DNA of 64,000 bases from Candidatus Thorarchaeota archaeon. Lineage in GTDB: Archaea; Asgardarchaeota; Thorarchaeia; Thorarchaeales; Thorarchaeaceae. Below are positions 26,539-37,428 of the stretch, one piece after another. The notes under the pieces were generated by a model. It worked only from the letters and a program-made list of their open reading frames with translations, did no database searches and was not told the origin of the DNA. Numbering within the stretch: position 1 is the stretch's first letter; the number at the start of each line of letters is the position of its first letter. Location: positions 78,373 to 142,372 of the forward strand of contig JBHLRZ010000004.1 of the NCBI GenBank assembly GCA_048882045.1. The letters are read 5' to 3'. The translations under genes were made by a program, and so were the position numbers.

Positions 26539-28521
26539 ATGAGTGATTTCAAACTAGAGGCACCATTCAAACCCACAGGTGATCAACCACAGGCGATAGA
26601 GAAACTAGTGGAAGGTCTTGAGAGTGAACTCCAGCATCAAACACTTCTTGGTGTTACAGGCTCTGGTAAGACTTTTACAATGGCAAACGTCATTGAGGCT
26701 TACAATAAACCTACACTTGTCATCTCACATAACAAGACATTGGCTGCGCAGCTCGCATCTGAATACAAGCAATTCTTCCCTGATGCAGGAGTCGAATACT
26801 TTGTTTCATACTACGACTACTATCAGCCAGAAGCCTATGTTCCCAGTAAGGACATGTACATCGAGAAGGAAACAGACATCAACCAGGAGATTGAGAGACT
26901 TCGACATTCTGCAACTCATTCTTTGAGATCCCGGAGTGATGTCATTGTAGTAGCATCTGTTTCCTGTATATACGGTGTAGGTGATCCGAGTGAGTATGAC
27001 TACTTCAGGATGTACATTGAACGGGGAGGGCAAATTGACCGACGTGAAATCTTGGAACGACTCGTCGCCATGCAATACGAGCGAAATGACATGGAGATCA
27101 AGCCTGGTGTCTTCCGGGTGAGGGGAGATGTCATAGATGTCTATCCCGCTGCTTCAGAGAACAGCTATCGAATTGAGCTCGACGGTGACAAAGTGTACCG
27201 GCTCACTATGCTGGAAGGTCTTACCTCAAAGAAGCTGTATCAACCAGACTGGATTGAATTGTATCCAGCAAAACATCACATAGCCCGTCATGAAACCGTT
27301 ATCGACGCACTGGAACCGATAGAGCAAGAGATGCTTGAGAGGGTTGAGTGGTTCAAGAAGCAAGGGAAGATGGTGGAAGCAGATCGACTGAAGCGAAGAA
27401 CTCTGTATGATATTGAGATGCTTCGGGAGATTGGAATGTGTTCTGGCATAGAGAATTACTCTCGGTTCATTGATGGTCGAAGTGTAGGTGAGAAGCCATA
27501 CACTCTACTCGACTACTTCCCGAAAGATTTCCTCATGATTATCGATGAGTCTCACATGACCATTCCCCAGGTTCGAGGGATGTACAACGGGGACCTTGCG
27601 CGAAAACAGAATTTGGTAGACTATGGATTTCGACTCCCCTCAGCGATTGACAATCGTCCATTGAAGTTTCCAGAGTTCGAGAAATACATGAAACATGTCA
27701 TCTTCACAAGTGCAACTCCGGGACCATACGAGAAGAAGGTAAGCAAACAGATTGTCGAACAGCTACTGAGACCCACTGGTCTCTTGGATCCTGACATAAC
27801 TATCAAACCTGTGATCGGTCAGGTGGACCATCTCCTAGGTGAGATACAGACCACCGTGGGAAAGGGTGATAGAGTCCTCGTGACTACCCTCACAAAGAAG
27901 ACTGCTGAAATGTTGAGTGAGTATCTTATTGAGGCAGGAGTGAAGTCTAGATATCTGCATTCAGACATCGGTACAGTGGAGCGTATCGAAATCATCCGTC
28001 AGCTACGTCAGGCGAAGTTTGATGTCCTTGTTGGTATCAACCTTCTTAGAGAGGGGCTGGACCTCCCAGAGGTCGGACTAGTTGCTATCCTCGATGCAGA
28101 CAAGGAGGGCTTCCTGAGGACAGATTGGGCACTCATCCAGACCATGGGTCGGGCAGCACGAAACGCGAATGGCCGAGTCATTCTATATGGTGACCACACG
28201 TCGAAGGCTATGCAGACTGCAATAGATGAGGTCAACCGACGCAGGTCATATCAAGAGAAGTACAATAAGGAGCATGGAATCACACCTGCGACCATTGTTA
28301 AGGATATTCAGGACATTGCCCAAGGCATCACAGTGCGCCAAGAAAGTGCTCAGACAAAGCTCGAGGATTTCGATCCTATCGAGATGGATGACCTAGCTGA
28401 TTACATCATTGACCTTGAGGAAGAGATGAAGGAAGCAGCAAGGAACCTTGAGTTTGAGAAGGCTGCAAGACTACGTGACAAGATTGCATCATTACGAAAG
28501 AGGGTAGAGGGTATCAGATAG
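26539..28521 (+). CDS. uvrB: excinuclease ABC subunit B
   Basis: PTGDQPQAI, GVTGSGKT, HNKTLAAQL, FVSYYDYYQPEAY, IDESH, GINLLREGLD, C-terminal UVR motif. Confidence 0.99.
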   Translation: MSDFKLEAPFKPTGDQPQAIEKLVEGLESELQHQTLLGVTGSGKTFTMANVIEAYNKPTLVISHNKTLAAQLASEYKQFFPDAGVEYFVSYYDYYQPEAYVPSKDMYIEKETDINQEIERLRHSATHSLRSRSDVIVVASVSCIYGVGDPSEYDYFRMYIERGGQIDRREILERLVAMQYERNDMEIKPGVFRVRGDVIDVYPAASENSYRIELDGDKVYRLTMLEGLTSKKLYQPDWIELYPAKHHIARHETVIDALEPIEQEMLERVEWFKKQGKMVEADRLKRRTLYDIEMLREIGMCSGIENYSRFIDGRSVGEKPYTLLDYFPKDFLMIIDESHMTIPQVRGMYNGDLARKQNLVDYGFRLPSAIDNRPLKFPEFEKYMKHVIFTSATPGPYEKKVSKQIVEQLLRPTGLLDPDITIKPVIGQVDHLLGEIQTTVGKGDRVLVTTLTKKTAEMLSEYLIEAGVKSRYLHSDIGTVERIEIIRQLRQAKFDVLVGINLLREGLDLPEVGLVAILDADKEGFLRTDWALIQTMGRAARNANGRVILYGDHTSKAMQTAIDEVNRRRSYQEKYNKEHGITPATIVKDIQDIAQGITVRQESAQTKLEDFDPIEMDDLADYIIDLEEEMKEAARNLEFEKAARLRDKIASLRKRVEGIR

Positions 28522-31409
28522 TGAAGTCATTGACCAACGACAGAGGCAGCGGTTCTCCAGATGTTCCATTGGAGGGTCCTCAGTCCATACTAGTCGTTGG
28601 TGCTGCGGAAAACAATCTTCGCCACATTTCATGTGAGATTCCGAAGAACAAGTTCACAGTAGTTACCGGGGTTTCAGGTAGTGGAAAGAGCAGCCTGGTG
28701 TTCGACACGATCTTCGCTGAGGGTCAGAGACGCTTCGTTGAGTCTCTCTCTGCCTATGCACGTCAGTTTCTTGGCATGCTAGAGAAACCTAAGGTCGACT
28801 TCATGTCAGGACTCTCACCATCGATCTCGATTGACCAGAAGAGTGTTGGACGCAACCCTCGCTCTACCGTTGGTACAATCACAGAAATCTACGACTATCT
28901 ACGTCTGCTCTACGCAAGAGTAGGTACTCCTCACTGCCCGAAGTGTGGTAAGAAGATCGAACCACAGACCTCGCAACAGATGGTCGATCGCATCCTCCGG
29001 TTTCCTGAAGGGACGAAGATAGTGATACTCGCTCCAATCGTCCGTGGTCGGAAGGGAGAGTATCGAAGGGAATTCAGAGACCTGATCAAGAAGGGATTCA
29101 TTCGAGCTAGAGTTGATGGGGAGCTCGTGGAACTCGAGGACGGAATGTCTCTTGACAGATACTTTGAGCACACCATAGAGGTAGTGGTAGACAGACTTCG
29201 AGTGAAGAAGGATGACCGCAGCAGGATATCGGAAGCTGTCGAGACCTCTCTCAACATGGCAGATGGTGTTGTCTCTGTCGAGAGGGATGGCGGCACTCTT
29301 ACGTTATCGGAGCAGTTCGCCTGTGTGGACTGTGGAATCAGTCTTCCGGAGATGGAACCTCGTATCTTCTCTTGGAACACACCACAGGGAGCATGCACTA
29401 ACTGTACAGGTTTGGGAGTGGTCCGGGAGTTTGATCCCGACCTGTTCATCAAGAATCCTAATCTTTCATTGAATGAGGGTGCGATGATTCCTGACAACTG
29501 GGTACTTCGTAGGAAATTGTTTCACAAGGTGGCTGAGAAGTACGGTTTCACCCTCGATATGCCCTGGAAAGACTTCACCGAGGAGCAGAAGAATATTGTA
29601 TTCTACGGGACTACTGAGAAGTATGATGTCACATGGGAAGGTGGCAACGAAGAGTATGAGGTAAAGTACTCAGGTCATTACAAGAGAGCATTCGAGGGAT
29701 TCGTCATCCGTGCTCAGAGGACCTACAAGAATACAAAGTCCGAGTATCGTCGTCGACAGATAGAACAGCTCATGTCCACACAGAAATGTCCAGTCTGTAA
29801 GGGTCATCGTCTGCGGCCAGAGTCTCAGGCTATAACGATAGGAAATCGCTCGATCTCTGAGATCGGATCTATGTCAATCAAAGATCTTGGTCAGTTCATA
29901 GAAACCGCAAAGATTCCAAAGCGGTTCAGACCGGTCTCCGAGCCGATAATCAAAGAGATTCTCGGTCGCATAGGTTTTCTCCAGGATGTCGGGCTCGAGT
30001 ACCTGACACTGGACAGGCCCGCTCCGTCTCTTGCAGGCGGCGAAGCCCAGAGGATTCGTCTCGCCAGTCAGATCGGTTCGAACCTTGTCGGTGTGACCTA
30101 CGTCTGTGATGAGCCTAGTATCGGACTTCATGCCCGTGACAACCAGCGACTCCTGAACTCGTTGATGAATCTAAGAGACCTCGGCAACACAGTATTGGTC
30201 GTGGAGCATGACGAAGAGACGATCAGGAGTGCAGACTATGTCATCGACCTTGGCGTCGGTGCTGGTGCTGAGGGCGGGGATGTTGTCGTTGCTGGTGAAC
30301 TTGATGATGTGTTGAATTCAGAAACGTCAATCACTGCAAAGTACCTCCGAGGTGATGAGAAGATACCTGTACCTACGGAGCGCCGAAAGTCGAATGGCAG
30401 GTTCATAGAGGTACGTGGTTGTCGCCACAACAATCTGAAGGATCTCAACGTGAGGATACCTCTGGGGCTGTTTGTGGCAGTAACAGGAGTGTCCGGTAGT
30501 GGGAAGAGCTCTCTGGTCGTCGAGACACTGCAACGGGAACTAGCCCGCAGATTCCATCATGCTGAAGCAAAGCCCGGCGAGCATGATGAAATTGTTGGAA
30601 TCGAACAACTGGACAAAGTCATTGTGATTGACCAGAGTCCCATCGGGAGAACCCCGAGAAGTAATCCAGCTACATATGTCGGACTCTGGACTCCACTCAG
30701 AGAACTCTATGCGAGTCTTCCTGAATCGAAGATTCGTGGATACAAGCCCGGTCGTTTCTCGTTCAATGTCAAGAGTGGTAGTTGCCCAAAGTGTAAGGGG
30801 GCTGGTGTAGAGATCATCGAGATGCAGTTCCTCCCTCCTGTTCAGGTAACATGTAGCGAGTGTAAGGGTCGCCGTTACAACAGGGAAACCCTCCAGGTCC
30901 GATTCAAGGGGAAGAATATCTCCGATGTTCTGGATATGAGGATAGACGAGGCCCGTGAGTTTTTCGAGGGAGTGCCTTCGATCCATCGGCGTCTGTCAAC
31001 TCTCTGCGACGTGGGCATGGGATATGTGAAGATGGGACAGCCCGCTACAACGTTGAGTGGCGGAGAAGCTCAGAGGATCAAACTGAGTAAGTTCCTGTCA
31101 AGACCTGCTACCGGACAGACACTGATTTTATTAGATGAGCCCACGACAGGTCTCCACTTTGCCGACATCAAGAAGCTCCTTGAGGTTCTCCACCGCCTGG
31201 TTGACCTCGGAAACAGTGTGCTTGTTATAGAACATCAACTGGATGTTGTGAAGACTGCTGACCATGTCATCGACTTGGGACCTGAGGGTGGGGATGAGGG
31301 TGGTTACATTGTTGCTCAGGGCACTCCGGAAGAGATAGTCGCAGACAAAGCCTCATACACAGGCAAGTACATGTCAGAACTTCTGCAAGAGGGAGGGGCT
31401 GAGATGTGA
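28521..31409 (+). CDS. uvrA: excinuclease ABC subunit A (copy 1)
   Basis: Two ABC NBDs (GVSGSGKS twice), AEGQRRFVESLS, zinc modules, UvrB-binding domain, QSPIGRTPRSNP. Confidence 0.97.
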   Translation: MKSLTNDRGSGSPDVPLEGPQSILVVGAAENNLRHISCEIPKNKFTVVTGVSGSGKSSLVFDTIFAEGQRRFVESLSAYARQFLGMLEKPKVDFMSGLSPSISIDQKSVGRNPRSTVGTITEIYDYLRLLYARVGTPHCPKCGKKIEPQTSQQMVDRILRFPEGTKIVILAPIVRGRKGEYRREFRDLIKKGFIRARVDGELVELEDGMSLDRYFEHTIEVVVDRLRVKKDDRSRISEAVETSLNMADGVVSVERDGGTLTLSEQFACVDCGISLPEMEPRIFSWNTPQGACTNCTGLGVVREFDPDLFIKNPNLSLNEGAMIPDNWVLRRKLFHKVAEKYGFTLDMPWKDFTEEQKNIVFYGTTEKYDVTWEGGNEEYEVKYSGHYKRAFEGFVIRAQRTYKNTKSEYRRRQIEQLMSTQKCPVCKGHRLRPESQAITIGNRSISEIGSMSIKDLGQFIETAKIPKRFRPVSEPIIKEILGRIGFLQDVGLEYLTLDRPAPSLAGGEAQRIRLASQIGSNLVGVTYVCDEPSIGLHARDNQRLLNSLMNLRDLGNTVLVVEHDEETIRSADYVIDLGVGAGAEGGDVVVAGELDDVLNSETSITAKYLRGDEKIPVPTERRKSNGRFIEVRGCRHNNLKDLNVRIPLGLFVAVTGVSGSGKSSLVVETLQRELARRFHHAEAKPGEHDEIVGIEQLDKVIVIDQSPIGRTPRSNPATYVGLWTPLRELYASLPESKIRGYKPGRFSFNVKSGSCPKCKGAGVEIIEMQFLPPVQVTCSECKGRRYNRETLQVRFKGKNISDVLDMRIDEAREFFEGVPSIHRRLSTLCDVGMGYVKMGQPATTLSGGEAQRIKLSKFLSRPATGQTLILLDEPTTGLHFADIKKLLEVLHRLVDLGNSVLVIEHQLDVVKTADHVIDLGPEGGDEGGYIVAQGTPEEIVADKASYTGKYMSELLQEGGAEM

Positions 31410-34264
31410 CCGGCTACATCAAGGTGCGAAAGGCTGAGGAACATAACCTCAAGTCAATCGATGTAGACATTCCTCGAGATCGGCTTGTGGTTGTTACAGG
31501 ACCCAGTGGTTCTGGAAAATCTACGCTTGTGTTTGATACCGTGTTCGCAGAGGGGCAGCGACGCTATGTGGAGAGCTTGTCTTCCTATGCACGAAGGTTT
31601 CTTGGACGCCTCGACAAACCAAAGGTGGACAAGATCACTGGTCTTCCTCCAGCCATATCGATCGAACAGAAAGGACGCACAAAGAACCCACGTAGCACAG
31701 TAGCAACGAGCACTGAGATCCAGGACTACCTTCGACTGCTATACGCCAATATTGGCATCGCACATTGTGTCCAGTGTAAGAAACCTATGGAACAGCTCAC
31801 TGCTGAGTCAGCAGCCAGACTTCTTCTTGATGAGAATGGAGGACAAAGGATTCACATACTCGCCCCTGTCGTGAGGGGTGATACCGGGAATCACGAGGAG
31901 GAATTGGACGGTCTCTTCAAGAATGGATTCGCCAGAGTCCGAGTAGACAGTGAGATCCATGACATCGACGGTCTCCACCTGGATGCTCGGAAGAAACACG
32001 ATATCGAAGTTGTCGTTGACAGGCTCGAACTCAGTCAGAAGAATAGAGAGCGACTCATCGGGTCCCTGGAGACCGCACTTGAAACTGGAGAGGGAGCAGC
32101 CATCGTCGCTCGGGAAGGTATGCCTGACTTGCTCTTTGCAGAATCACTGATGTGTCCGAAGTGTGGAATTCAATATGATAAACTGGGACCGAAGGCCTTC
32201 TCACATAACAGACCAGATGGAGCATGTCCCACATGTAATGGTCTTGGAGTGACAATGGCTGTCGACCCAGACTTAGTGATACCTGACAAAGACATGACTG
32301 TTCGAGAGATCAGTAAGAGAGTCAACAGAGCGGAGAAACCATGGTTCTTGAAGCGGCTCCAGAAATTGGGTGAACAGAAAGGCTTTACATTGGACACAAA
32401 ATACAGGGACTTCACAAAGGCTCAGGTAGATGTGTTCATGTGGGGGAAGCCGAATGTCATGCTTCAATATGTGATGGAGGGCGATGAGTCATATTGGGAA
32501 ATAGAACGAAAATGGATAGGGCTCATTCCGTGGTTGGAACGACTCTTTGAAAACTCAAAGAGCAGCGACAAACAGTGGTATCAGTGGTGGGCACGGAGAA
32601 TTGCAAACGAGTTCTCTCGAAAGAGTACCTGTGTGTCCTGCAATGGTCGTCGTCTGAAACCTGAGAGTCTTGCAGTCACTGTTGGGGGTCGCTCTATTGA
32701 TACTATCACTTCCATGACCATCGAACAGGCTGTTGAGTTTTTCAACACCATCGAGCTCTCAGAACGAGACCTCAAGATAGCACAGCTTGTCCTCAAAGAG
32801 ATAAAGGCTCGACTGAAATTCTTGATCTCTGTAGGCCTCGAGTATCTCAATCTGGACAGAGCTAGTATGACTCTCTCAGGAGGAGAGAGTCAGAGAATCA
32901 GACTCGCAACGCAGATCGGTTCTGCACTGACTGGAGTCCTCTATTGTCTTGATGAACCATCAATTGGTCTCCATCCGCGAGACATCAGTCGCCTCATCGA
33001 TACGTTCTATCACCTTCGATCACTCGGGAACACCGTGGTCGTAATCGAGCATGACAGAGACACCATCACGGCTGCAGACCATCTCATCGACTTGGGGCCG
33101 CTGGCGGGTCGACATGGTGGAGAAGTGGTAGCAGAAGGGTCTCCTAGAGAAGTTCTGACACACCCAAAGTCTCTGACTGCCCAGTACTTGGCTGGAGAGA
33201 AACAGATTCCCATCCCCGAAGAACGGCGTAAAGGAAACGGTCACAACATCACTATTCACAACGCACGTACGAACAATCTGAAGGGCATCACAGTCAGGTT
33301 CCCATTGAACAAGATGATCTGTGTGTCTGGAGTTTCGGGTGCTGGGAAGAGCTCCCTGACGTATGATACACTCTACAAGGCACTTGCTCGGGACATCAAT
33401 GGAGCAAGCACAAGACCTGGTCCTTATGATTCAATAGATGGGATTGAAAATCTCGATAGGCTGGTCTTGGTAGATCAGTCACCGATAGGCCGGACACCCA
33501 GAAGCAACCCAGCAACCTACACGAAGACCTTCGGAGAGATTCGTGAGCTCTTCGCAAAGATGCCTGAGGCGAAGGCTCGCGGATTCAGTCCTGGACGATT
33601 CAGTTTCAACACACGCGAGGGTCGATGCGAGAAGTGCAAAGGCAGTGGAGTGCTTCGAGTTGAGATGCACTTCATGTCGGATGTGTTCATGACCTGCGAT
33701 GTGTGTCACGGAGAACGATTCGACCGAGAGACCCTCGAGGTAAGTTACAAGGGGAAGAACATCACCGAGATCCTCGCGATGACCATAGATGAAGCTCTTG
33801 AGTTCTTTGCTGACATCCCGAAGATTGCAGACAAGCTCACTACACTTGTCGACGTAGGATTGGGCTACCTCCAGTTGGGTCAACCAGCCACCCAGCTCAG
33901 TGGTGGAGAAGCACAGAGGATGAAGCTCGCATCAGAGCTCTCTCGGAAGGCAACTGGGAAGACATTGTATCTCTTGGACGAACCCACAACTGGGCTGTCC
34001 GCCTCTGATGTCCATGTCCTGCTCAGAGTGATTAATCGGTTAGTGGATGCAGGGAACACAGCCATCATTGTGGAACACAATCTTGAGGTCGTCAAGACAG
34101 CAGACCATGTCATCGACTTAGGTCCGGAAGGTGGAGATGCTGGTGGTGAGGTGATCGCCGAGGGCACTCCCGAAGAGATCTGTGAAGTCTGGAAGTCGTA
34201 TACAGGGAACCACTTGCGTGATGCCCTCTTCGGCCCCAACGTTCGGCGGGGTCAACTGAACTAA
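31406..34264 (+). CDS. uvrA: excinuclease ABC subunit A (copy 2)
   Basis: Full-length with GPSGSGKS and GVSGAGKS, AEGQRRYVESLS, UvrB-binding region, QSPIGRTPRSNP; GTGA overlap with copy 1. Confidence 0.97.
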   Translation: MTGYIKVRKAEEHNLKSIDVDIPRDRLVVVTGPSGSGKSTLVFDTVFAEGQRRYVESLSSYARRFLGRLDKPKVDKITGLPPAISIEQKGRTKNPRSTVATSTEIQDYLRLLYANIGIAHCVQCKKPMEQLTAESAARLLLDENGGQRIHILAPVVRGDTGNHEEELDGLFKNGFARVRVDSEIHDIDGLHLDARKKHDIEVVVDRLELSQKNRERLIGSLETALETGEGAAIVAREGMPDLLFAESLMCPKCGIQYDKLGPKAFSHNRPDGACPTCNGLGVTMAVDPDLVIPDKDMTVREISKRVNRAEKPWFLKRLQKLGEQKGFTLDTKYRDFTKAQVDVFMWGKPNVMLQYVMEGDESYWEIERKWIGLIPWLERLFENSKSSDKQWYQWWARRIANEFSRKSTCVSCNGRRLKPESLAVTVGGRSIDTITSMTIEQAVEFFNTIELSERDLKIAQLVLKEIKARLKFLISVGLEYLNLDRASMTLSGGESQRIRLATQIGSALTGVLYCLDEPSIGLHPRDISRLIDTFYHLRSLGNTVVVIEHDRDTITAADHLIDLGPLAGRHGGEVVAEGSPREVLTHPKSLTAQYLAGEKQIPIPEERRKGNGHNITIHNARTNNLKGITVRFPLNKMICVSGVSGAGKSSLTYDTLYKALARDINGASTRPGPYDSIDGIENLDRLVLVDQSPIGRTPRSNPATYTKTFGEIRELFAKMPEAKARGFSPGRFSFNTREGRCEKCKGSGVLRVEMHFMSDVFMTCDVCHGERFDRETLEVSYKGKNITEILAMTIDEALEFFADIPKIADKLTTLVDVGLGYLQLGQPATQLSGGEAQRMKLASELSRKATGKTLYLLDEPTTGLSASDVHVLLRVINRLVDAGNTAIIVEHNLEVVKTADHVIDLGPEGGDAGGEVIAEGTPEEICEVWKSYTGNHLRDALFGPNVRRGQLN

Positions 34265-34276
34265 TACATGATCGGC

Positions 34277-34717
34277 TTAGTAAAGCTGGATGAACGTATA
34301 GACAAAGACAATCAGGAATATTATGACCATAACGGAGATCATGGCTCCCAGAGTCCTTGAGTAGTTCTTCGGGTCGAGCTGCCCCTCTTGGTCCATTTTC
34401 TTTGCCATCGGGTACAGTTTCCAATAGAAGGACATGATTGACATCATCAGTGCAAAAAGGACCCAGACCTGGACCTGTTCGTTCGCAAAGATGAGGATCA
34501 CAGTCAACATGGCCAAAAAGATCAACTTTGTACCAGCAACCCAGTTCACCAGATAGTTTGTAAAATTGTGTATCTCTGTGTCTTGCTTGGACTTCTCCCA
34601 GGCTGTGAAGACTCCTACACTATTGAACATCTTAGAATCCTTTCTGAAGTAAAGTGCGAGAACGTTCGCGAATTCAAGGAACATGAATGCAATTATCACA
34701 ATTACAAGTAGACTCAT
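34277..34717 (-). CDS. 4-TM membrane protein
   Basis: 146 aa, hydrophobic segments, YLVNWVAGTKLIF motif. Confidence 0.75.
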   Translation of the reverse strand: MSLLVIVIIAFMFLEFANVLALYFRKDSKMFNSVGVFTAWEKSKQDTEIHNFTNYLVNWVAGTKLIFLAMLTVILIFANEQVQVWVLFALMMSIMSFYWKLYPMAKKMDQEGQLDPKNYSRTLGAMISVMVIIFLIVFVYTFIQLY

Positions 34718-34772
34718 AGTGAAGGACTCGAATATTGCTCGATATATTATAACTGGTCATCAATGGAAATCA

Positions 34773-34891
34773 ATGATTTTTCAAAAACCGCGCGTTCTGC
34801 GTTCGATTTATCGAGACGCGTCTCGCATAATGAGACCTCGCAGAAAATCAACTGCCACAAAATGCTCGGAAACACTTCCGAAATGCATTTT
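34773..34891. other. cluster of inverted repeats in an intergenic region
   Basis: Perfect palindrome CGAGACGCGTCTCG (34812-34825), TTCTGCG/CGCAGAA, and AAAATGC-TCGGAA-ACAC-TTCCGA-AAT-GCATTTT. Confidence 0.4.
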
Positions 34892-35062
34892 TCAGCAATA
34901 GACAAGTGAGGACATCATACACATATGGTATATTAACCACTCGCGAGAGACTTTTTCCTGGTTGTCCATGTTTGGACCACCGTTCGCAGACGGCCGCCGG
35001 GAGGTCGACGCACACACATGATACGCAGAGATGAGTCAAACGACTCAACGCCAACATCGGCA

Positions 35063-35533
35063 ATGACTACAAAGAACACCAGCACGATATACGAAACTGA
35101 CCTCAGAAGAAGACTAGCTACTTTTCCAAGGGACGTCCTTGCATGGTTTGCACTAGGGAAATATCTCCGTTCCGTTGGTAGACTGCAAGAGGCTGAGGAG
35201 TCACTACGAAAGGCAACCTCCCTCAATCCAGGTCCACTACCATTCTGGGAAGAGCTTGCTTTGACTCTTGTTGACCTTGGTCGGATTGACGAGGCTTATG
35301 CAATCTGCGACCAGAATCTGAGGAAGAAAGACGATACAATAGTGAAAAGACTAGAGGAGCTCAGGAAGCTGGAGCGGTCAGCAGGTGCGGACTATCCTGA
35401 AGAGACCTCTCCCTGTGTTGCGTGTCCTGAATACACATACTATGGTTGCTCTAGGGGATGTGAATGTGATGCGATTGTCAGATGGCGCTCAGCCATCTCT
35501 AATACACGCCCAACTTCGACTCATAGAACCTGA
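35063..35533 (+). CDS. TPR protein with C-terminal Cys cluster
   Basis: AWFALG..G...EAEESLRKA..LNP TPR; C-terminal CVAC-x7-C-x3-CEC. Confidence 0.75.
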   Translation: MTTKNTSTIYETDLRRRLATFPRDVLAWFALGKYLRSVGRLQEAEESLRKATSLNPGPLPFWEELALTLVDLGRIDEAYAICDQNLRKKDDTIVKRLEELRKLERSAGADYPEETSPCVACPEYTYYGCSRGCECDAIVRWRSAISNTRPTSTHRT

Positions 35534-35616
35534 TGTAGCTCGGTTGTACCTTCCGAATCACTGATTTATGGTATTCTTATCAAGACAATACTATACTGAC
35601 TTGTGGAAGGAAACTG

Positions 35617-37428
35617 ATGTCGGATCTCAGAGCTCTCGTCCAAGACTTACCCGATGCACCTGGCGTGTATCTATGGAAGGACGAGAAAGGGAAAATCCTC
35701 TACATTGGCAAGGCAAAGTATTTGCGTCGAAGAGTCGGGTCCTACCTCCGAAAGACTGGACTCTACCGCAGATTGGGAGAGATGATGTTTCACGCTCGAG
35801 ATCTCGAAACAATTGTGACTAACACTGAGCGCGAAGCGCTCGTTTTGGAACAGACGCTCATAAAGAAACATCAACCTAGATACAATATTGCCCTCAAGGA
35901 TGATCGACGTCACGCATGGATTAGAGTGGACTTGAAGAAACGGATTCCAACATTTGAGATTACTCGCGAAGCTGAGAAAGATGGAGCAACCTACTATGGT
36001 CCATATGGCAGCACAAAGAGGCTCGAACGCCTCATGGACACTATAAGAAAATCCATTCCGGTTGCTATGTGTAGGGATCCTGAAAAGGTGAAACGTGCTT
36101 GCATGGACTACCACCTTGACAGATGCACTGGACCCTGCGAGGACCACATTGATCTACCTGAGTATAGGGAACTAGTTGAACAGATGAGCTATTATCTCGA
36201 GGGACGCCCGGATGATCTACGGAGGTCTCTAAAGAAGCAAATGGAGAATGCATCAGCTGCAATGGAGTTTGAGAAAGCAGCAGAGATGCGTGACCGTCTT
36301 ACAGACCTTGAGGTTTTGATGAGTCGCCAAAAAGTAGTGCGTTTCGAAGGTGCAAACAGTGATATTCTTGGAATCTCGCGAACAGAGCAAGCAGCTCTGA
36401 TCAATATGTTGATTGTACGAAACGGACGATTGATTGGAGTTGACAACTTCTATTTTGAGATTGATTTGGACACACCAGACTCTGAAGTAATTGAGGCTTT
36501 CATAGAGCAGTTCTACTTCACGATTCCACGTCTTCCGGATCAGATAATCATTCCCACAAAAATCTCTCAGATGAAGAACCTCAGCACTTGGCTGAGTGAT
36601 GTAAATAGCCATCCAGTGAAAATTATGCTCCCCGATGATGATAGAACTTCTGAACTCGTAGAGATGGCTAAGAAGAATGCTCATCGAGCTCTTCGAAAGA
36701 TGTTGATTCTTGGACACAGTGACGAAGAGATTGTGCATCCTGGTGTAAAGCATTTGAAGGAGGCTTTGGGTCTTGCAGTTGTTCCAATGCGCATCGAAGG
36801 CTTTGATATCGCCAACATACAAGGCACAGACCCAACAGGCTCGTGTGTTGTCTTCAAGAATGGAGAACCATACAGCAAGCGTTACCGAATGTTCAAGGTT
36901 CGGATCAAGCAGACTCCTGACGATTATGCTATGATGCACGAAGTCGTCTATCGGAGATATTACGGAGTACTTGAGCGGAAGGATGTACTTCCGGATCTCA
37001 TCCTCATTGATGGCGGAAAGGGACAGCTCAATGTCGCGTTGGAAGCATTATCCGAATTGGGACTTGACTATGTTCCAGTCGTAGCGGTCGCAAAGCGTGA
37101 AGAAATCCTGTATACACGAGATGCTCCTGAAGGTATTGTACTCGATCTTGGATCCCAGGGACTTCACCTGATTCAGAACATCCGAGACGAAGCTCACAGG
37201 TTTGCACAACGGTATCACCATAAACTCAGAGAAAAGAGATTCACAGGTTCTATACTAGAAGAAGCCCCTGGCATCGGTCCAAAGAGGAGGTCAGCACTAC
37301 TTCAAGCTCTGGGTAGTTACGACAATGTGAAGAATGCTTCAGTGGAAGAGCTTGCAGCAGTTGAAGGGATGTCAGAAAAGACTGCAATGGCTCTAAGAGA
37401 ATGGCTGGACCGAGATGATGCTGATTGA
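35617..37428 (+). CDS. uvrC: excinuclease ABC subunit C
   Basis: GIY-YIG (PGVYLW..LYIGKA), RIEGFDIA, LILIDGGKGQ, IRDEAHRFA, HhH (PGIGPKR). Confidence 0.98.
   Translation: MSDLRALVQDLPDAPGVYLWKDEKGKILYIGKAKYLRRRVGSYLRKTGLYRRLGEMMFHARDLETIVTNTEREALVLEQTLIKKHQPRYNIALKDDRRHAWIRVDLKKRIPTFEITREAEKDGATYYGPYGSTKRLERLMDTIRKSIPVAMCRDPEKVKRACMDYHLDRCTGPCEDHIDLPEYRELVEQMSYYLEGRPDDLRRSLKKQMENASAAMEFEKAAEMRDRLTDLEVLMSRQKVVRFEGANSDILGISRTEQAALINMLIVRNGRLIGVDNFYFEIDLDTPDSEVIEAFIEQFYFTIPRLPDQIIIPTKISQMKNLSTWLSDVNSHPVKIMLPDDDRTSELVEMAKKNAHRALRKMLILGHSDEEIVHPGVKHLKEALGLAVVPMRIEGFDIANIQGTDPTGSCVVFKNGEPYSKRYRMFKVRIKQTPDDYAMMHEVVYRRYYGVLERKDVLPDLILIDGGKGQLNVALEALSELGLDYVPVVAVAKREEILYTRDAPEGIVLDLGSQGLHLIQNIRDEAHRFAQRYHHKLREKRFTGSILEEAPGIGPKRRSALLQALGSYDNVKNASVEELAAVEGMSEKTAMALREWLDRDDAD

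Follow-up and report, generated by a model that had tools for sequence, protein, structure and literature searches.

Class I UvrA is the canonical NER damage sensor and normally acts as a homodimer. In bacterial excision repair, the initial UvrA2B2 complex is symmetric, but the pre-incision complex in which it ends is asymmetric, with a single UvrB bound to the damaged strand. Recent structural work (PMC11985968) names as an unanswered question how UvrABC repair loses this symmetry and selects the strand. Class I UvrAs (NF001503/TIGR00630; structures 2r6f, 3pih, 3zqj and 9gxk) are encoded by one gene and contain two ABC modules, three zinc modules, a UvrB-binding domain and an insertion domain. 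Class II UvrAs (Deinococcus UvrA2, 2vf7; DrrC; Ecm16, 7sh1) are second paralogues found beside a canonical UvrA. They have no UvrB-binding domain and do not work in UvrB loading. Fused double UvrAs (NF001885/PRK00635 type, ~1,800-1,960 aa) bring together two different UvrA modules at 1:1 in one chain; divergence is greater in the second module, chiefly in its UvrB-binding domain, and the first is the more canonical of the two. Heterodimeric ABC ATPases (e.g., TAP1/2-type transporters) also pair paralogous ABC halves into an asymmetric machine, with one degenerate site. We found no description of a heterodimeric or tandem full-length UvrA pair in the literature that we searched.

The locus analyzed here, from a Thorarchaeota MAG, encodes a bacterial-type UvrABC excision-repair system with two diverged class I-type UvrAs, A1 and A2 (Table 1). 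It lies in a window of 64,000 nucleotides (the whole stretch of DNA analyzed). Like class I UvrAs, A1 and A2 have uvrB and uvrC as neighbors, but here the usual single gene is replaced by a pair of diverged copies whose tandem arrangement is fixed and overlapping. The reading frames are as the initial annotation had described them: two full-length UvrAs that are 50% identical end to end, the first overlapping uvrB by 1 nt and the second overlapping the first by 4 nt.

Table 1. Features of the uvrB-uvrA1-uvrA2 locus (positions in the window).
Feature	Positions	Strand	Description
uvrB	26539..28521	+	660 aa from ATG 26539; NF003673, 1009 bits (cut-off 743)
uvrB stop/uvrA1 start junction	28519..28523	+	TAGTG, 1-nt overlap; read from sequence
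uvrA1	28521..31409	+	962 aa; NF001503, 1389 bits (cut-off 1147); more canonical class I-type UvrA
Coupling element	31391..31409	+	GGGAGGGG (31391-31398) within the 3' end of uvrA1, then GTGA (31406-31409)
uvrA2	31406..34264	+	952 aa; full-length UvrA; NF001503, 1323 bits (cut-off 1147)
146-aa ORF	34277..34717	-	Hydrophobic/membrane; between uvrA2 and uvrC; from ORF list
171-aa ORF	35018..35533	+	TPR-like, weak NCBIfam TPR-type matches; just 5' of uvrC
uvrC	35617..37428	+	603 aa; TIGR00194, 547 bits (cut-off 285)

The ATG of uvrB is preceded by a Shine-Dalgarno-like stretch (GGAAGG/GGAG), and an in-frame GTG farther upstream (26515) is a less likely start. A single G (28521) is common to the uvrB stop codon (TAG) and the uvrA1 start codon (GTG). 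The stop codon of uvrA1 (TGA) and the start codon of uvrA2 (GTG) overlap as GTGA, with GGGAGGGG 8 nt upstream; uvrA1 and uvrA2 are separate ORFs, read in different frames and divided by a TGA. At this locus, uvrC is separated from uvrA2 by the minus-strand ORF and the TPR-like ORF. The minus-strand ORF is foreign to the ancestral operon; in other genera uvrC comes directly or nearly directly after uvrA2. Profile searches of the genome found one match to uvrB and one to uvrC, making these the sole uvrB and the sole uvrC. Two further UvrA-family genes are on another contig of the same genome.

Both proteins belong to the UvrA family over their full length. They scored 1330 (A1) and 1274 bits (A2) against TIGR00630 (cut-off 730), and their best matches in the PDB (1186 and 1082 bits) aligned end to end with solved UvrAs. 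Both contain the two ABC modules, the three zinc modules, the UvrB-interaction domain UvrA_inter (PF17760; 134 bits in A1 and 98 bits in A2) and the insertion/DNA-binding domain (PF17755; 79 and 62 bits). The presence of PF17760 in both rules out a class II identity for either protein, in agreement with the initial annotation, and both align to 2vf7 and 7sh1 over the core only. Neither is a fused double UvrA; scores against NF001885 (691 and 707 bits) were far under the cut-off of 3054.

The initial annotation had listed motif deviations in each copy and proposed that these were complementary, with subfunctionalized ATPase, UvrB-loading or lesion-sensing halves. A1 does contain LAGGE and GSCPKC, and A2 does contain GLS, RGDTG and WYQWWARR. 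The argument from complementary deviations is mostly unsupported. Walker A, Q-loop, signature, Walker B and H-loop are kept in both ABC modules in the A1 and A2 clades, as are the 12 zinc cysteines (CxxC pairs of the three zinc modules), which are also invariant in one of our alignments. GSCPKC is strain-specific, found in 1 of 13 A1 orthologues. LAGGE, in signature I, occurs in 9 of 13 A1 orthologues, but also in 5 of 79 bacterial UvrAs and, among single-copy Asgard UvrAs, in 4 of 16. Although fixed in A2, GLS is found in ~25% of single-copy Asgard UvrAs as well. Both LAGGE and GLS are tolerated variants that occur in single-copy UvrAs too. Unlike heterodimeric ABC ATPases, A1 and A2 have no degenerate site. 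No catalytic motif is degenerate in either protein, ruling out a model of that kind.

We found that the tandem is conserved well beyond this genome. Nine other genera and the sister family have the same order, uvrB-A1-A2-uvrC. In the host family, 60 of 76 genomes had matches, nearly all of them two adjacent matches, A1 followed by A2. On intact contigs of genomes from the host family and the sister family there was no A1 without A2 and no A2 without A1; genomes with a single match are accounted for by contig ends. The co-retention and the translational coupling extend across the family. The A1 stop and A2 start overlapped in 24 of 25 complete junctions: 22 had a -4 overlap with an ATG or GTG start, and two had a -1 overlap. 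The remaining junction (genome G004) has the -4 geometry, and its start codon position reads ATA. Most of the 25 have a GGAGG-like stretch upstream of the A2 start. The tandem is on independent contigs of ~60 genomes, which rules out an assembly or MAG artefact. A2 orthologues are found family-wide (65-92% identity). Both A1 and A2 are under constraint: within-clade identity across genera is 0.64-0.83 (insertion domain excluded), and the catalytic and zinc motifs are intact.

There is a real asymmetry between the two proteins, and it lies in A2, which has a diverged UvrB-binding domain, a diverged insertion domain and a changed DNA wedge (Q65R, S82P). In Ct-UvrA, Q65 is part of a DNA wedge that has been tested by experiment, and the dimer contacts of ATP-binding-I include Y55 and S82 (PMC12796330). 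The canonical wedge Y62-Q65-F66 (Ct-UvrA numbering, PMC12796330) is Y-Q-F in A1 and Y-R-F in 95% of A2 orthologues. Among 79 sampled bacterial UvrAs, position 65 is Q in 92% and R in none, and both Q65R and S82P are clade-fixed in A2 at sites that are near-invariant in these bacterial proteins. Arg also replaces N271 in A2, and the Pro at position 82 is at a dimer contact. The most diverged part of A2 is the remodeled, Trp-rich insertion domain (WYQWWARR), with 0.30 identity to the bacterial consensus. In the UvrB-binding region, A2 reads RGDTG and is missing the otherwise invariant Lys of RGRKG. Identity of the UvrB-binding domain to the bacterial consensus is 0.57 for A1 versus 0.46 for A2, and 0.43 for the N-halves versus 0.29 for the C-halves of fused double UvrAs. 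That is, A1 and A2 show the same pattern as the first and second modules of the fusions. In contrast to the fusions, A1 and A2 are separate polypeptides joined by translational coupling alone.

Among the best 150 library representatives found with A1, 39 were fusions of two full-length UvrAs (~1,860-1,960 aa), including proteins from Heimdallarchaeota, Chloroflexota and Planctomycetota. The representative search with A1 returned almost only double-length proteins, which dominate because scores sum over both halves, and no single-length outgroups; bacterial UvrAs were taken from a separate search. A1 and the N-halves of the fusions formed a clade in every analysis (support of 97, 87, 100, and 85 within a 98 clade). 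The alliance is robust across these trees, and A1 belongs to the lineage of the fusion N-halves. This kinship to halves of natural UvrA-UvrA fusions makes a sensor with two different halves plausible.

The placement of A2 depended on the model. Several derived states are common to A2 and the C-halves at sites with at least 92% invariance elsewhere: the substitutions Q65R and P772S, and the absence of S82, of N541 and of the RGRKG Lys. Q65R is present in 95% of A2 sequences, 46% of C-halves and 0 of 79 bacterial UvrAs. It is possible that these common states arose by convergence. With LG+F+G4, the tree of highest likelihood had A1 plus N-halves as sister to A2 plus C-halves (p-AU 0.65 for A2 with C-halves). 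With LG+C20+F+G4, four trees were compared and the best had A2 beside a long-branch single-copy Asgard UvrA, and the tree with A2 and C-halves together was 12.2 log-likelihood units lower (p-AU 0.41). UFBoot on 60 taxa did not converge. A clean Rosetta-stone claim, with A2 orthologous to the C-halves, did not find firm support, since the topology changes with the model. We also considered a recent lineage-specific duplication, with A1 and A2 as sisters. This arrangement was disfavored by 27-34 log-likelihood units, although not rejected (p-AU 0.17 and 0.11). The initial annotation had asked whether A1 and A2 are always co-retained sister clades; co-retention held on all intact contigs, and the sister relationship did not find support.

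Our best explanation is that A1 and A2 form a heterodimer that still loads UvrB, in place of the usual homodimer. On the comparative sequence evidence, we put the probability of this reading at about one half (0.5). A1 and A2 would be made in near-equal amounts from the overlapping reading frames and would bind each other through their ATP-binding-I domains. Scanning of DNA and loading of UvrB (probably as A1A2B2) would still be possible, because A1 and A2 keep four ATPase sites, all of the zinc modules and the UvrB-binding domains. The presence of one uvrB and one uvrC for both UvrAs argues for this reading, as do the strict co-retention, the overlapping frames, the constraint on both copies, the precedent of the fusions, the likeness of A2 to the C-halves, the position of the substitutions at the wedge and dimer contacts, and the modeled docking of A2 on UvrB (below). 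The two further UvrA paralogues indicate that paralogue expansion is common here, which counts against it, as do the intact ATPase sites, the lack of charge-swap complementarity between A1 and A2 at known interface pairs, and the model-dependent position of A2 in the tree.

The two halves of such a heterodimer would differ in two places: at the dimer's contact with the center of the DNA and at the site of lesion hand-over. A1 would bring a canonical Tyr-Gln-Phe wedge together with a UvrB-binding domain close to the canonical one. In A2, the wedge Gln and N271 are both replaced by Arg, S82 at the dimer contact is replaced by Pro, and the insertion domain is Trp-rich. The outcome would be a built-in asymmetry in a sensor that is symmetric in bacteria. 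We infer both the pairing of A1 with A2 and what the asymmetry might do. A more far-reaching possibility, less probable than the heterodimer itself, is that the Thorarchaeaceae have an obligate, hard-wired asymmetric UvrA heterodimer, which would correspond in unfused form to the N-C fused double UvrAs known from Heimdallarchaeota, Chloroflexota and Planctomycetota. A1 would provide the canonical wedge and UvrB dock, and A2 the Trp-rich insertion domain and the Arg wedge. In that case, one side would be fixed in advance for strand choice or for passing the lesion to UvrB, with no need for symmetry breaking as in bacterial UvrA2B2.

The strongest alternative, which we consider unlikely but worth serious attention, is that A1 and A2 form two independent homodimers that use the same UvrB and UvrC, A1 acting on canonical lesions and A2 on other lesions or DNA structures. 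Each protein has every feature of a self-sufficient class I UvrA, and the homotypic contacts (Y55 or F55, and F66) allow self-pairing; the contacts Y55-Y55 and F66-F66 would fit either homodimer as well. The UvrB-binding domain of A2 was modeled on domain 2 of UvrB much like a canonical one. The score of 0.73, against 0.49 for the best of three controls, passed a mark that 58 of 80 solved complexes attained, as did 2 of 110 mismatched pairs; this pass may reflect mere likeness, since like complexes have already been solved. The runs agreed in at least 97% of contacts, and partner pLDDT was at least 83. Furthermore, bacteria with UvrA paralogues (class II UvrA2, Ecm16) use them separately. These separately acting paralogues, however, have neither the UvrB-binding domain nor translational coupling to uvrA1. 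The overlap and co-retention of A1 and A2 are also compatible with two enzymes that are merely co-regulated, but a 4-nt overlap fixed over ~15 genera and the lack of any single-copy survivor on intact contigs exceed what co-regulation needs. In addition, the closest relatives of A1 are halves of covalently paired UvrAs.

Less probable still is a mixed population, in which homodimers and heterodimers are interchangeable and the pair is kept by dosage or modest specialization, with no obligate asymmetric complex. Most interface residues are the same in A1 and A2 (R54, S58, Y62, A63, F66, L67, G80, L81, P83, I85, L507 and V510), and the sequence forbids none of the three dimers. Clade-specific substitutions fell at 3 of ~14 conserved positions of the published interface list, versus a background of ~9%, too few to claim enrichment. 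A compensation of one OH for another (F55 of A1 facing P82 of A2) was dropped because it had no mirror in the fusions. Against interchangeable subunits, the clade-fixed differences at Q65, S82, F269, N271 and in the insertion domain have been maintained for a long time, and they parallel the differences between the N- and C-halves of the fusions, both of which point to distinct roles. It is very improbable that A2 is a regulatory or accessory UvrA outside incision, such as a DNA-binding protector or a drug-resistance factor like class II UvrA, DrrC or Ecm16: the divergence of its insertion domain and the loss of the RGRKG Lys would fit, but A2 retains the UvrB-binding domain, passes the UvrA equivalog cut-off and is flanked in the ancestral operon by uvrA1 and uvrC, and class II-like modules are already present elsewhere in the genome.

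If the heterodimer reading is correct, then there are two fixed, different UvrA halves, each of which could be mutated separately. This is impossible in a homodimer and would provide a handle on symmetry breaking, for the split form of Thorarchaeota as well as for the fused form found in several other phyla. The host genome has four UvrA-family genes, and there are different fusions in other Asgard families; these Asgard paralogues are all annotated plainly as "excinuclease ABC subunit UvrA". Asgard archaea have gone beyond borrowing UvrABC from bacteria, and maintain elaborate sets of UvrA paralogues.

We found that the uvr locus of the window encodes two full-length UvrA proteins in tandem, A1 and A2, as the initial annotation had described; the ORF list, family scans and alignments all bore this out. 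The genes overlap. One G is common to the TAG stop codon of uvrB and the GTG start codon of uvrA1, and in the GTGA of the A1/A2 junction the TGA of uvrA1 overlaps the GTG of uvrA2, with GGGAGGGG 8 nt upstream. Both proteins passed the curated UvrA equivalog cut-off of 1147 bits (1389 for A1, 1323 for A2) and aligned over their entire length with bacterial UvrAs of solved structure (1186 and 1082 bits, respectively, with the 9gxk sequence). They are 50% identical to each other over their full length. Because family scans found a UvrB-interaction domain and an insertion domain in each, neither is a class II UvrA (the UvrA2/DrrC/Ecm16 type, which has no UvrB-binding domain). The G+C content of both uvrA genes (window 28000-34000) is 0.49-0.52, compared to about 0.43-0.45 in the remaining window, which fits either a foreign (bacterial) origin or a compositional constraint of the protein.

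Features of the uvr locus, of the other UvrA-family genes in the host genome (G000), and of one fusion gene in another Asgard genome (G143)
Feature	Coordinates	Strand	Description
uvrB	window 26539-28521	+	660 aa; ATG start with purine-rich stretch upstream
uvrA1	window 28521-31409	+	962 aa; family scan
uvrA2	window 31406-34264	+	952 aa; family scan
Membrane (hydrophobic) ORF	between uvrA2 and uvrC (window 34277-35533)	-	146 aa; ORF list
TPR-like ORF	between uvrA2 and uvrC (window 34277-35533)		171 aa, Cys-rich tail; ORF list
uvrC	window 35617-37428	+	603 aa; family scan
Third UvrA locus	G000 contig C5:69981-74830 (L039:12981-17815)	-	974 aa; full-length, very divergent
UvrA fusion	G000 contig C5:58928-63859 (L039:1928-6817)	-	1,629 aa; two UvrA-like units
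UvrA fusion	G143 (Asgard family f27) contig C4:105355-110403		1,972-aa open frame; UvrA unit without UvrB-binding domain + full-length UvrA

The host assembly (3.63 Mb, 93% complete) contains one uvrB, one uvrC and four UvrA-family genes: A1, A2 and two on another contig. In the divergent third UvrA the RGRKG motif is deleted, the wedge is T-T-M instead of Y-Q-F, and the signature is LSAGE. A 632-aa double nucleotidyltransferase is encoded directly downstream of it and a beta-lactamase-fold gene lies upstream. In the 1,629-aa fusion, both units are mostly without the UvrB-binding region; next comes the gene for a 345-aa protein whose toroid repeat is squalene-cyclase-like. The library has many other representatives, about 1,600-1,650 aa long, with the architecture of this fusion.

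The pair is conserved. We sampled 301 Asgard genomes, 76 of them from the family of the window, and found strong UvrA matches in 60 of the 76. Almost all of these had two adjacent matches, A1 followed by A2, and A2 orthologues within the family were 65-92% identical. The homologues nearest to A2 are annotated MAG proteins of Thorarchaeota and other Asgard archaea, from 92% down to 67% identity. The order uvrB-A1-A2-uvrC was also found in nine further genera and in the sister family, which belongs to the same order. Two ORFs separate uvrA2 from uvrC in the window; in other genera these two genes abut or overlap. Among 25 complete A1/A2 junctions, 22 had a 4-nt RTGA overlap and two a 1-nt overlap. 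The remaining one (L012, on contig C37 of genome G004) has the geometry of a 4-nt overlap with ATA at the A2 start (AAAATAACT), which could be a non-canonical start codon or a sequence error. In genomes with an apparent single copy, the operon was cut by a contig end, and we saw no intact contig with A1 only or A2 only. Other Asgard families had a single full-length UvrA (50-55% identical to, and about equidistant from, A1 and A2), a full-length UvrA accompanied, at another genomic site, by a class II-like one, or UvrA fusions. A tandem UvrA pair was absent from all 79 bacterial loci sampled.

A1 and A2 had been proposed to form a heterodimer, and their deviations, among them those in ATPase and zinc-finger motifs (LAGGE and GSCPKC in A1, GLS in A2), had been called complementary. 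The ATPase and zinc-finger argument fails on residue counts by clade from an alignment of 210 UvrA units. The Walker A, Q-loop, signature, Walker B and H-loop motifs and 12 of 12 zinc cysteines are kept in both clades. GSCPKC is confined to one of 13 A1 orthologues, that of the window genome. LAGGE, carried by 9 of 13 A1 orthologues, is shared by 5 of 79 bacterial UvrAs and, among single-copy Asgard UvrAs, by 4 of 16. The whole A2 clade is fixed for GLS, but a quarter of the Asgard UvrAs that are single-copy have it too.

The asymmetry that survives these counts lies outside the ATPase and zinc motifs. Identity to the bacterial consensus was 0.57 for A1 and 0.46 for A2 in the UvrB-binding domain, 0.46 and 0.30 in the insertion domain, and similar for the two in the ATPase cores. 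In A2 the invariant RGRKG Lys is gone, and changes have become fixed at sites that elsewhere show at least 92% invariance. We mapped clade substitutions onto the residue lists for Ct-UvrA, in which cryo-EM defined a DNA-probing wedge of Y62, Q65 and F66 and ATP-binding-I dimer contacts that include Y55, S82, P83 and A84 (PMC12796330). In this numbering, A2 has Q65R (95% of orthologues and none of 79 bacteria), S82P (95% of orthologues) and N271R, and A1 has Y55F (85%), A84S and F269W. A2 also has a conserved Trp-rich stretch toward the insertion domain's end. Judging by position, this stretch probably corresponds to the alpha-hairpin of Mycobacterium tuberculosis UvrA that is implicated in lesion hand-off (PMC11985968).

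We modeled the A2 UvrB-binding domain (residues 119-257) in complex with UvrB residues 1-430. The model scored 0.73, compared to 0.49 for the best of three controls; 58 of 80 solved complexes came up to this mark, as did 2 of 110 mismatched pairs. Contact agreement between runs was at least 97% and partner pLDDT was at least 83. The modeled interface comprises UvrB residues 168-232, in domain 2, and the RGDTG residues of A2 are outside it. Because similar complexes have already been solved, this result indicates likeness to them, not that A2 still binds UvrB.

The matches to A1 in the full library were almost exclusively double-length proteins. In 39 of the best 150 representatives, a single chain of about 1,860-1,960 aa held two full-length UvrAs, and hosts include Heimdallarchaeota (1,916 aa), Chloroflexota and Planctomycetota; other double-length matches had a full unit and a truncated one. 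One sampled Asgard genome has a full-length double fusion as a 1,917-aa open frame. Double UvrA fusions (library proteins P0121-P0270; loci L040 of genome G028 and L131 of Pirellulales) are thus both frequent and diverse; further forms had a full unit plus one without the insertion domain, or two class II-like units, and some exceeded 2,300 aa. The unit order of the G143 fusion differs from that of the Heimdallarchaeota type. The first unit (N-half) of the fusions is more canonical and the second (C-half) more diverged. The UvrB-binding domain shows this most strongly (0.43 vs 0.29 identity with the bacterial consensus). A1 and A2 have the same polarity.

A1 grouped with the N-halves in every analysis (support 97 with FastTree, 87 with quick LG+G4, and 85, inside a 98 clade, with C20-PMSF; SH-aLRT 100 with thorough LG+F+G4 on 60 taxa). 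The position of A2 shifted. It grouped with the C-halves in FastTree and in the highest-likelihood LG+F+G4 tree (36 taxa, lnL -45239.8), and was beside a long-branch single-copy Asgard UvrA in the best of four trees compared under LG+C20+F+G4. AU tests under LG+F+G4 and LG+C20+F+G4 rejected no topology: p-AU was 0.65 and 0.41, respectively, for A2 and the C-halves as one clade, and 0.17 and 0.11 for A1 and A2 as sister clades. The residue characters are mixed as well. A2 and the C-halves have in common Q65R, P772S and the loss of S82, of N541 and of the Lys in RGRKG; A43V, M70L and a Lys in the third zinc module are common to A1 and A2 only. The insertion-domain Arg at A1 position 401 is lost in all paired UvrAs and 88-100% conserved in single ones. 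Because the A2 trees depend on the model, the AU tests reject nothing and the characters are mixed, several origins could account for the pair: it may correspond to the fused UvrAs in split form, stem from an N-type copy that joined a resident UvrA, or go back to a local duplication long ago.

Based on these comparisons, the most economical model, to which we give a probability of about one half, is that A1 and A2 would pair as a heterodimer with two competent UvrB docks. Its center would be asymmetric, the wedge contributed by A1 carrying Gln and that contributed by A2 carrying Arg, and coupled translation would supply the halves 1:1. Much of the same evidence also fits two alternatives. A1 and A2 each have an intact, self-sufficient architecture, and they might act as two independent homodimers with different lesion ranges, which we think somewhat unlikely. 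Most interface residues are identical in A1 and A2, in line with a mixed population of dimers, the least probable of the three. Our literature search turned up no paper that describes UvrA as a full-length tandem or as a heterodimer; the UvrA paralogues described are class II.
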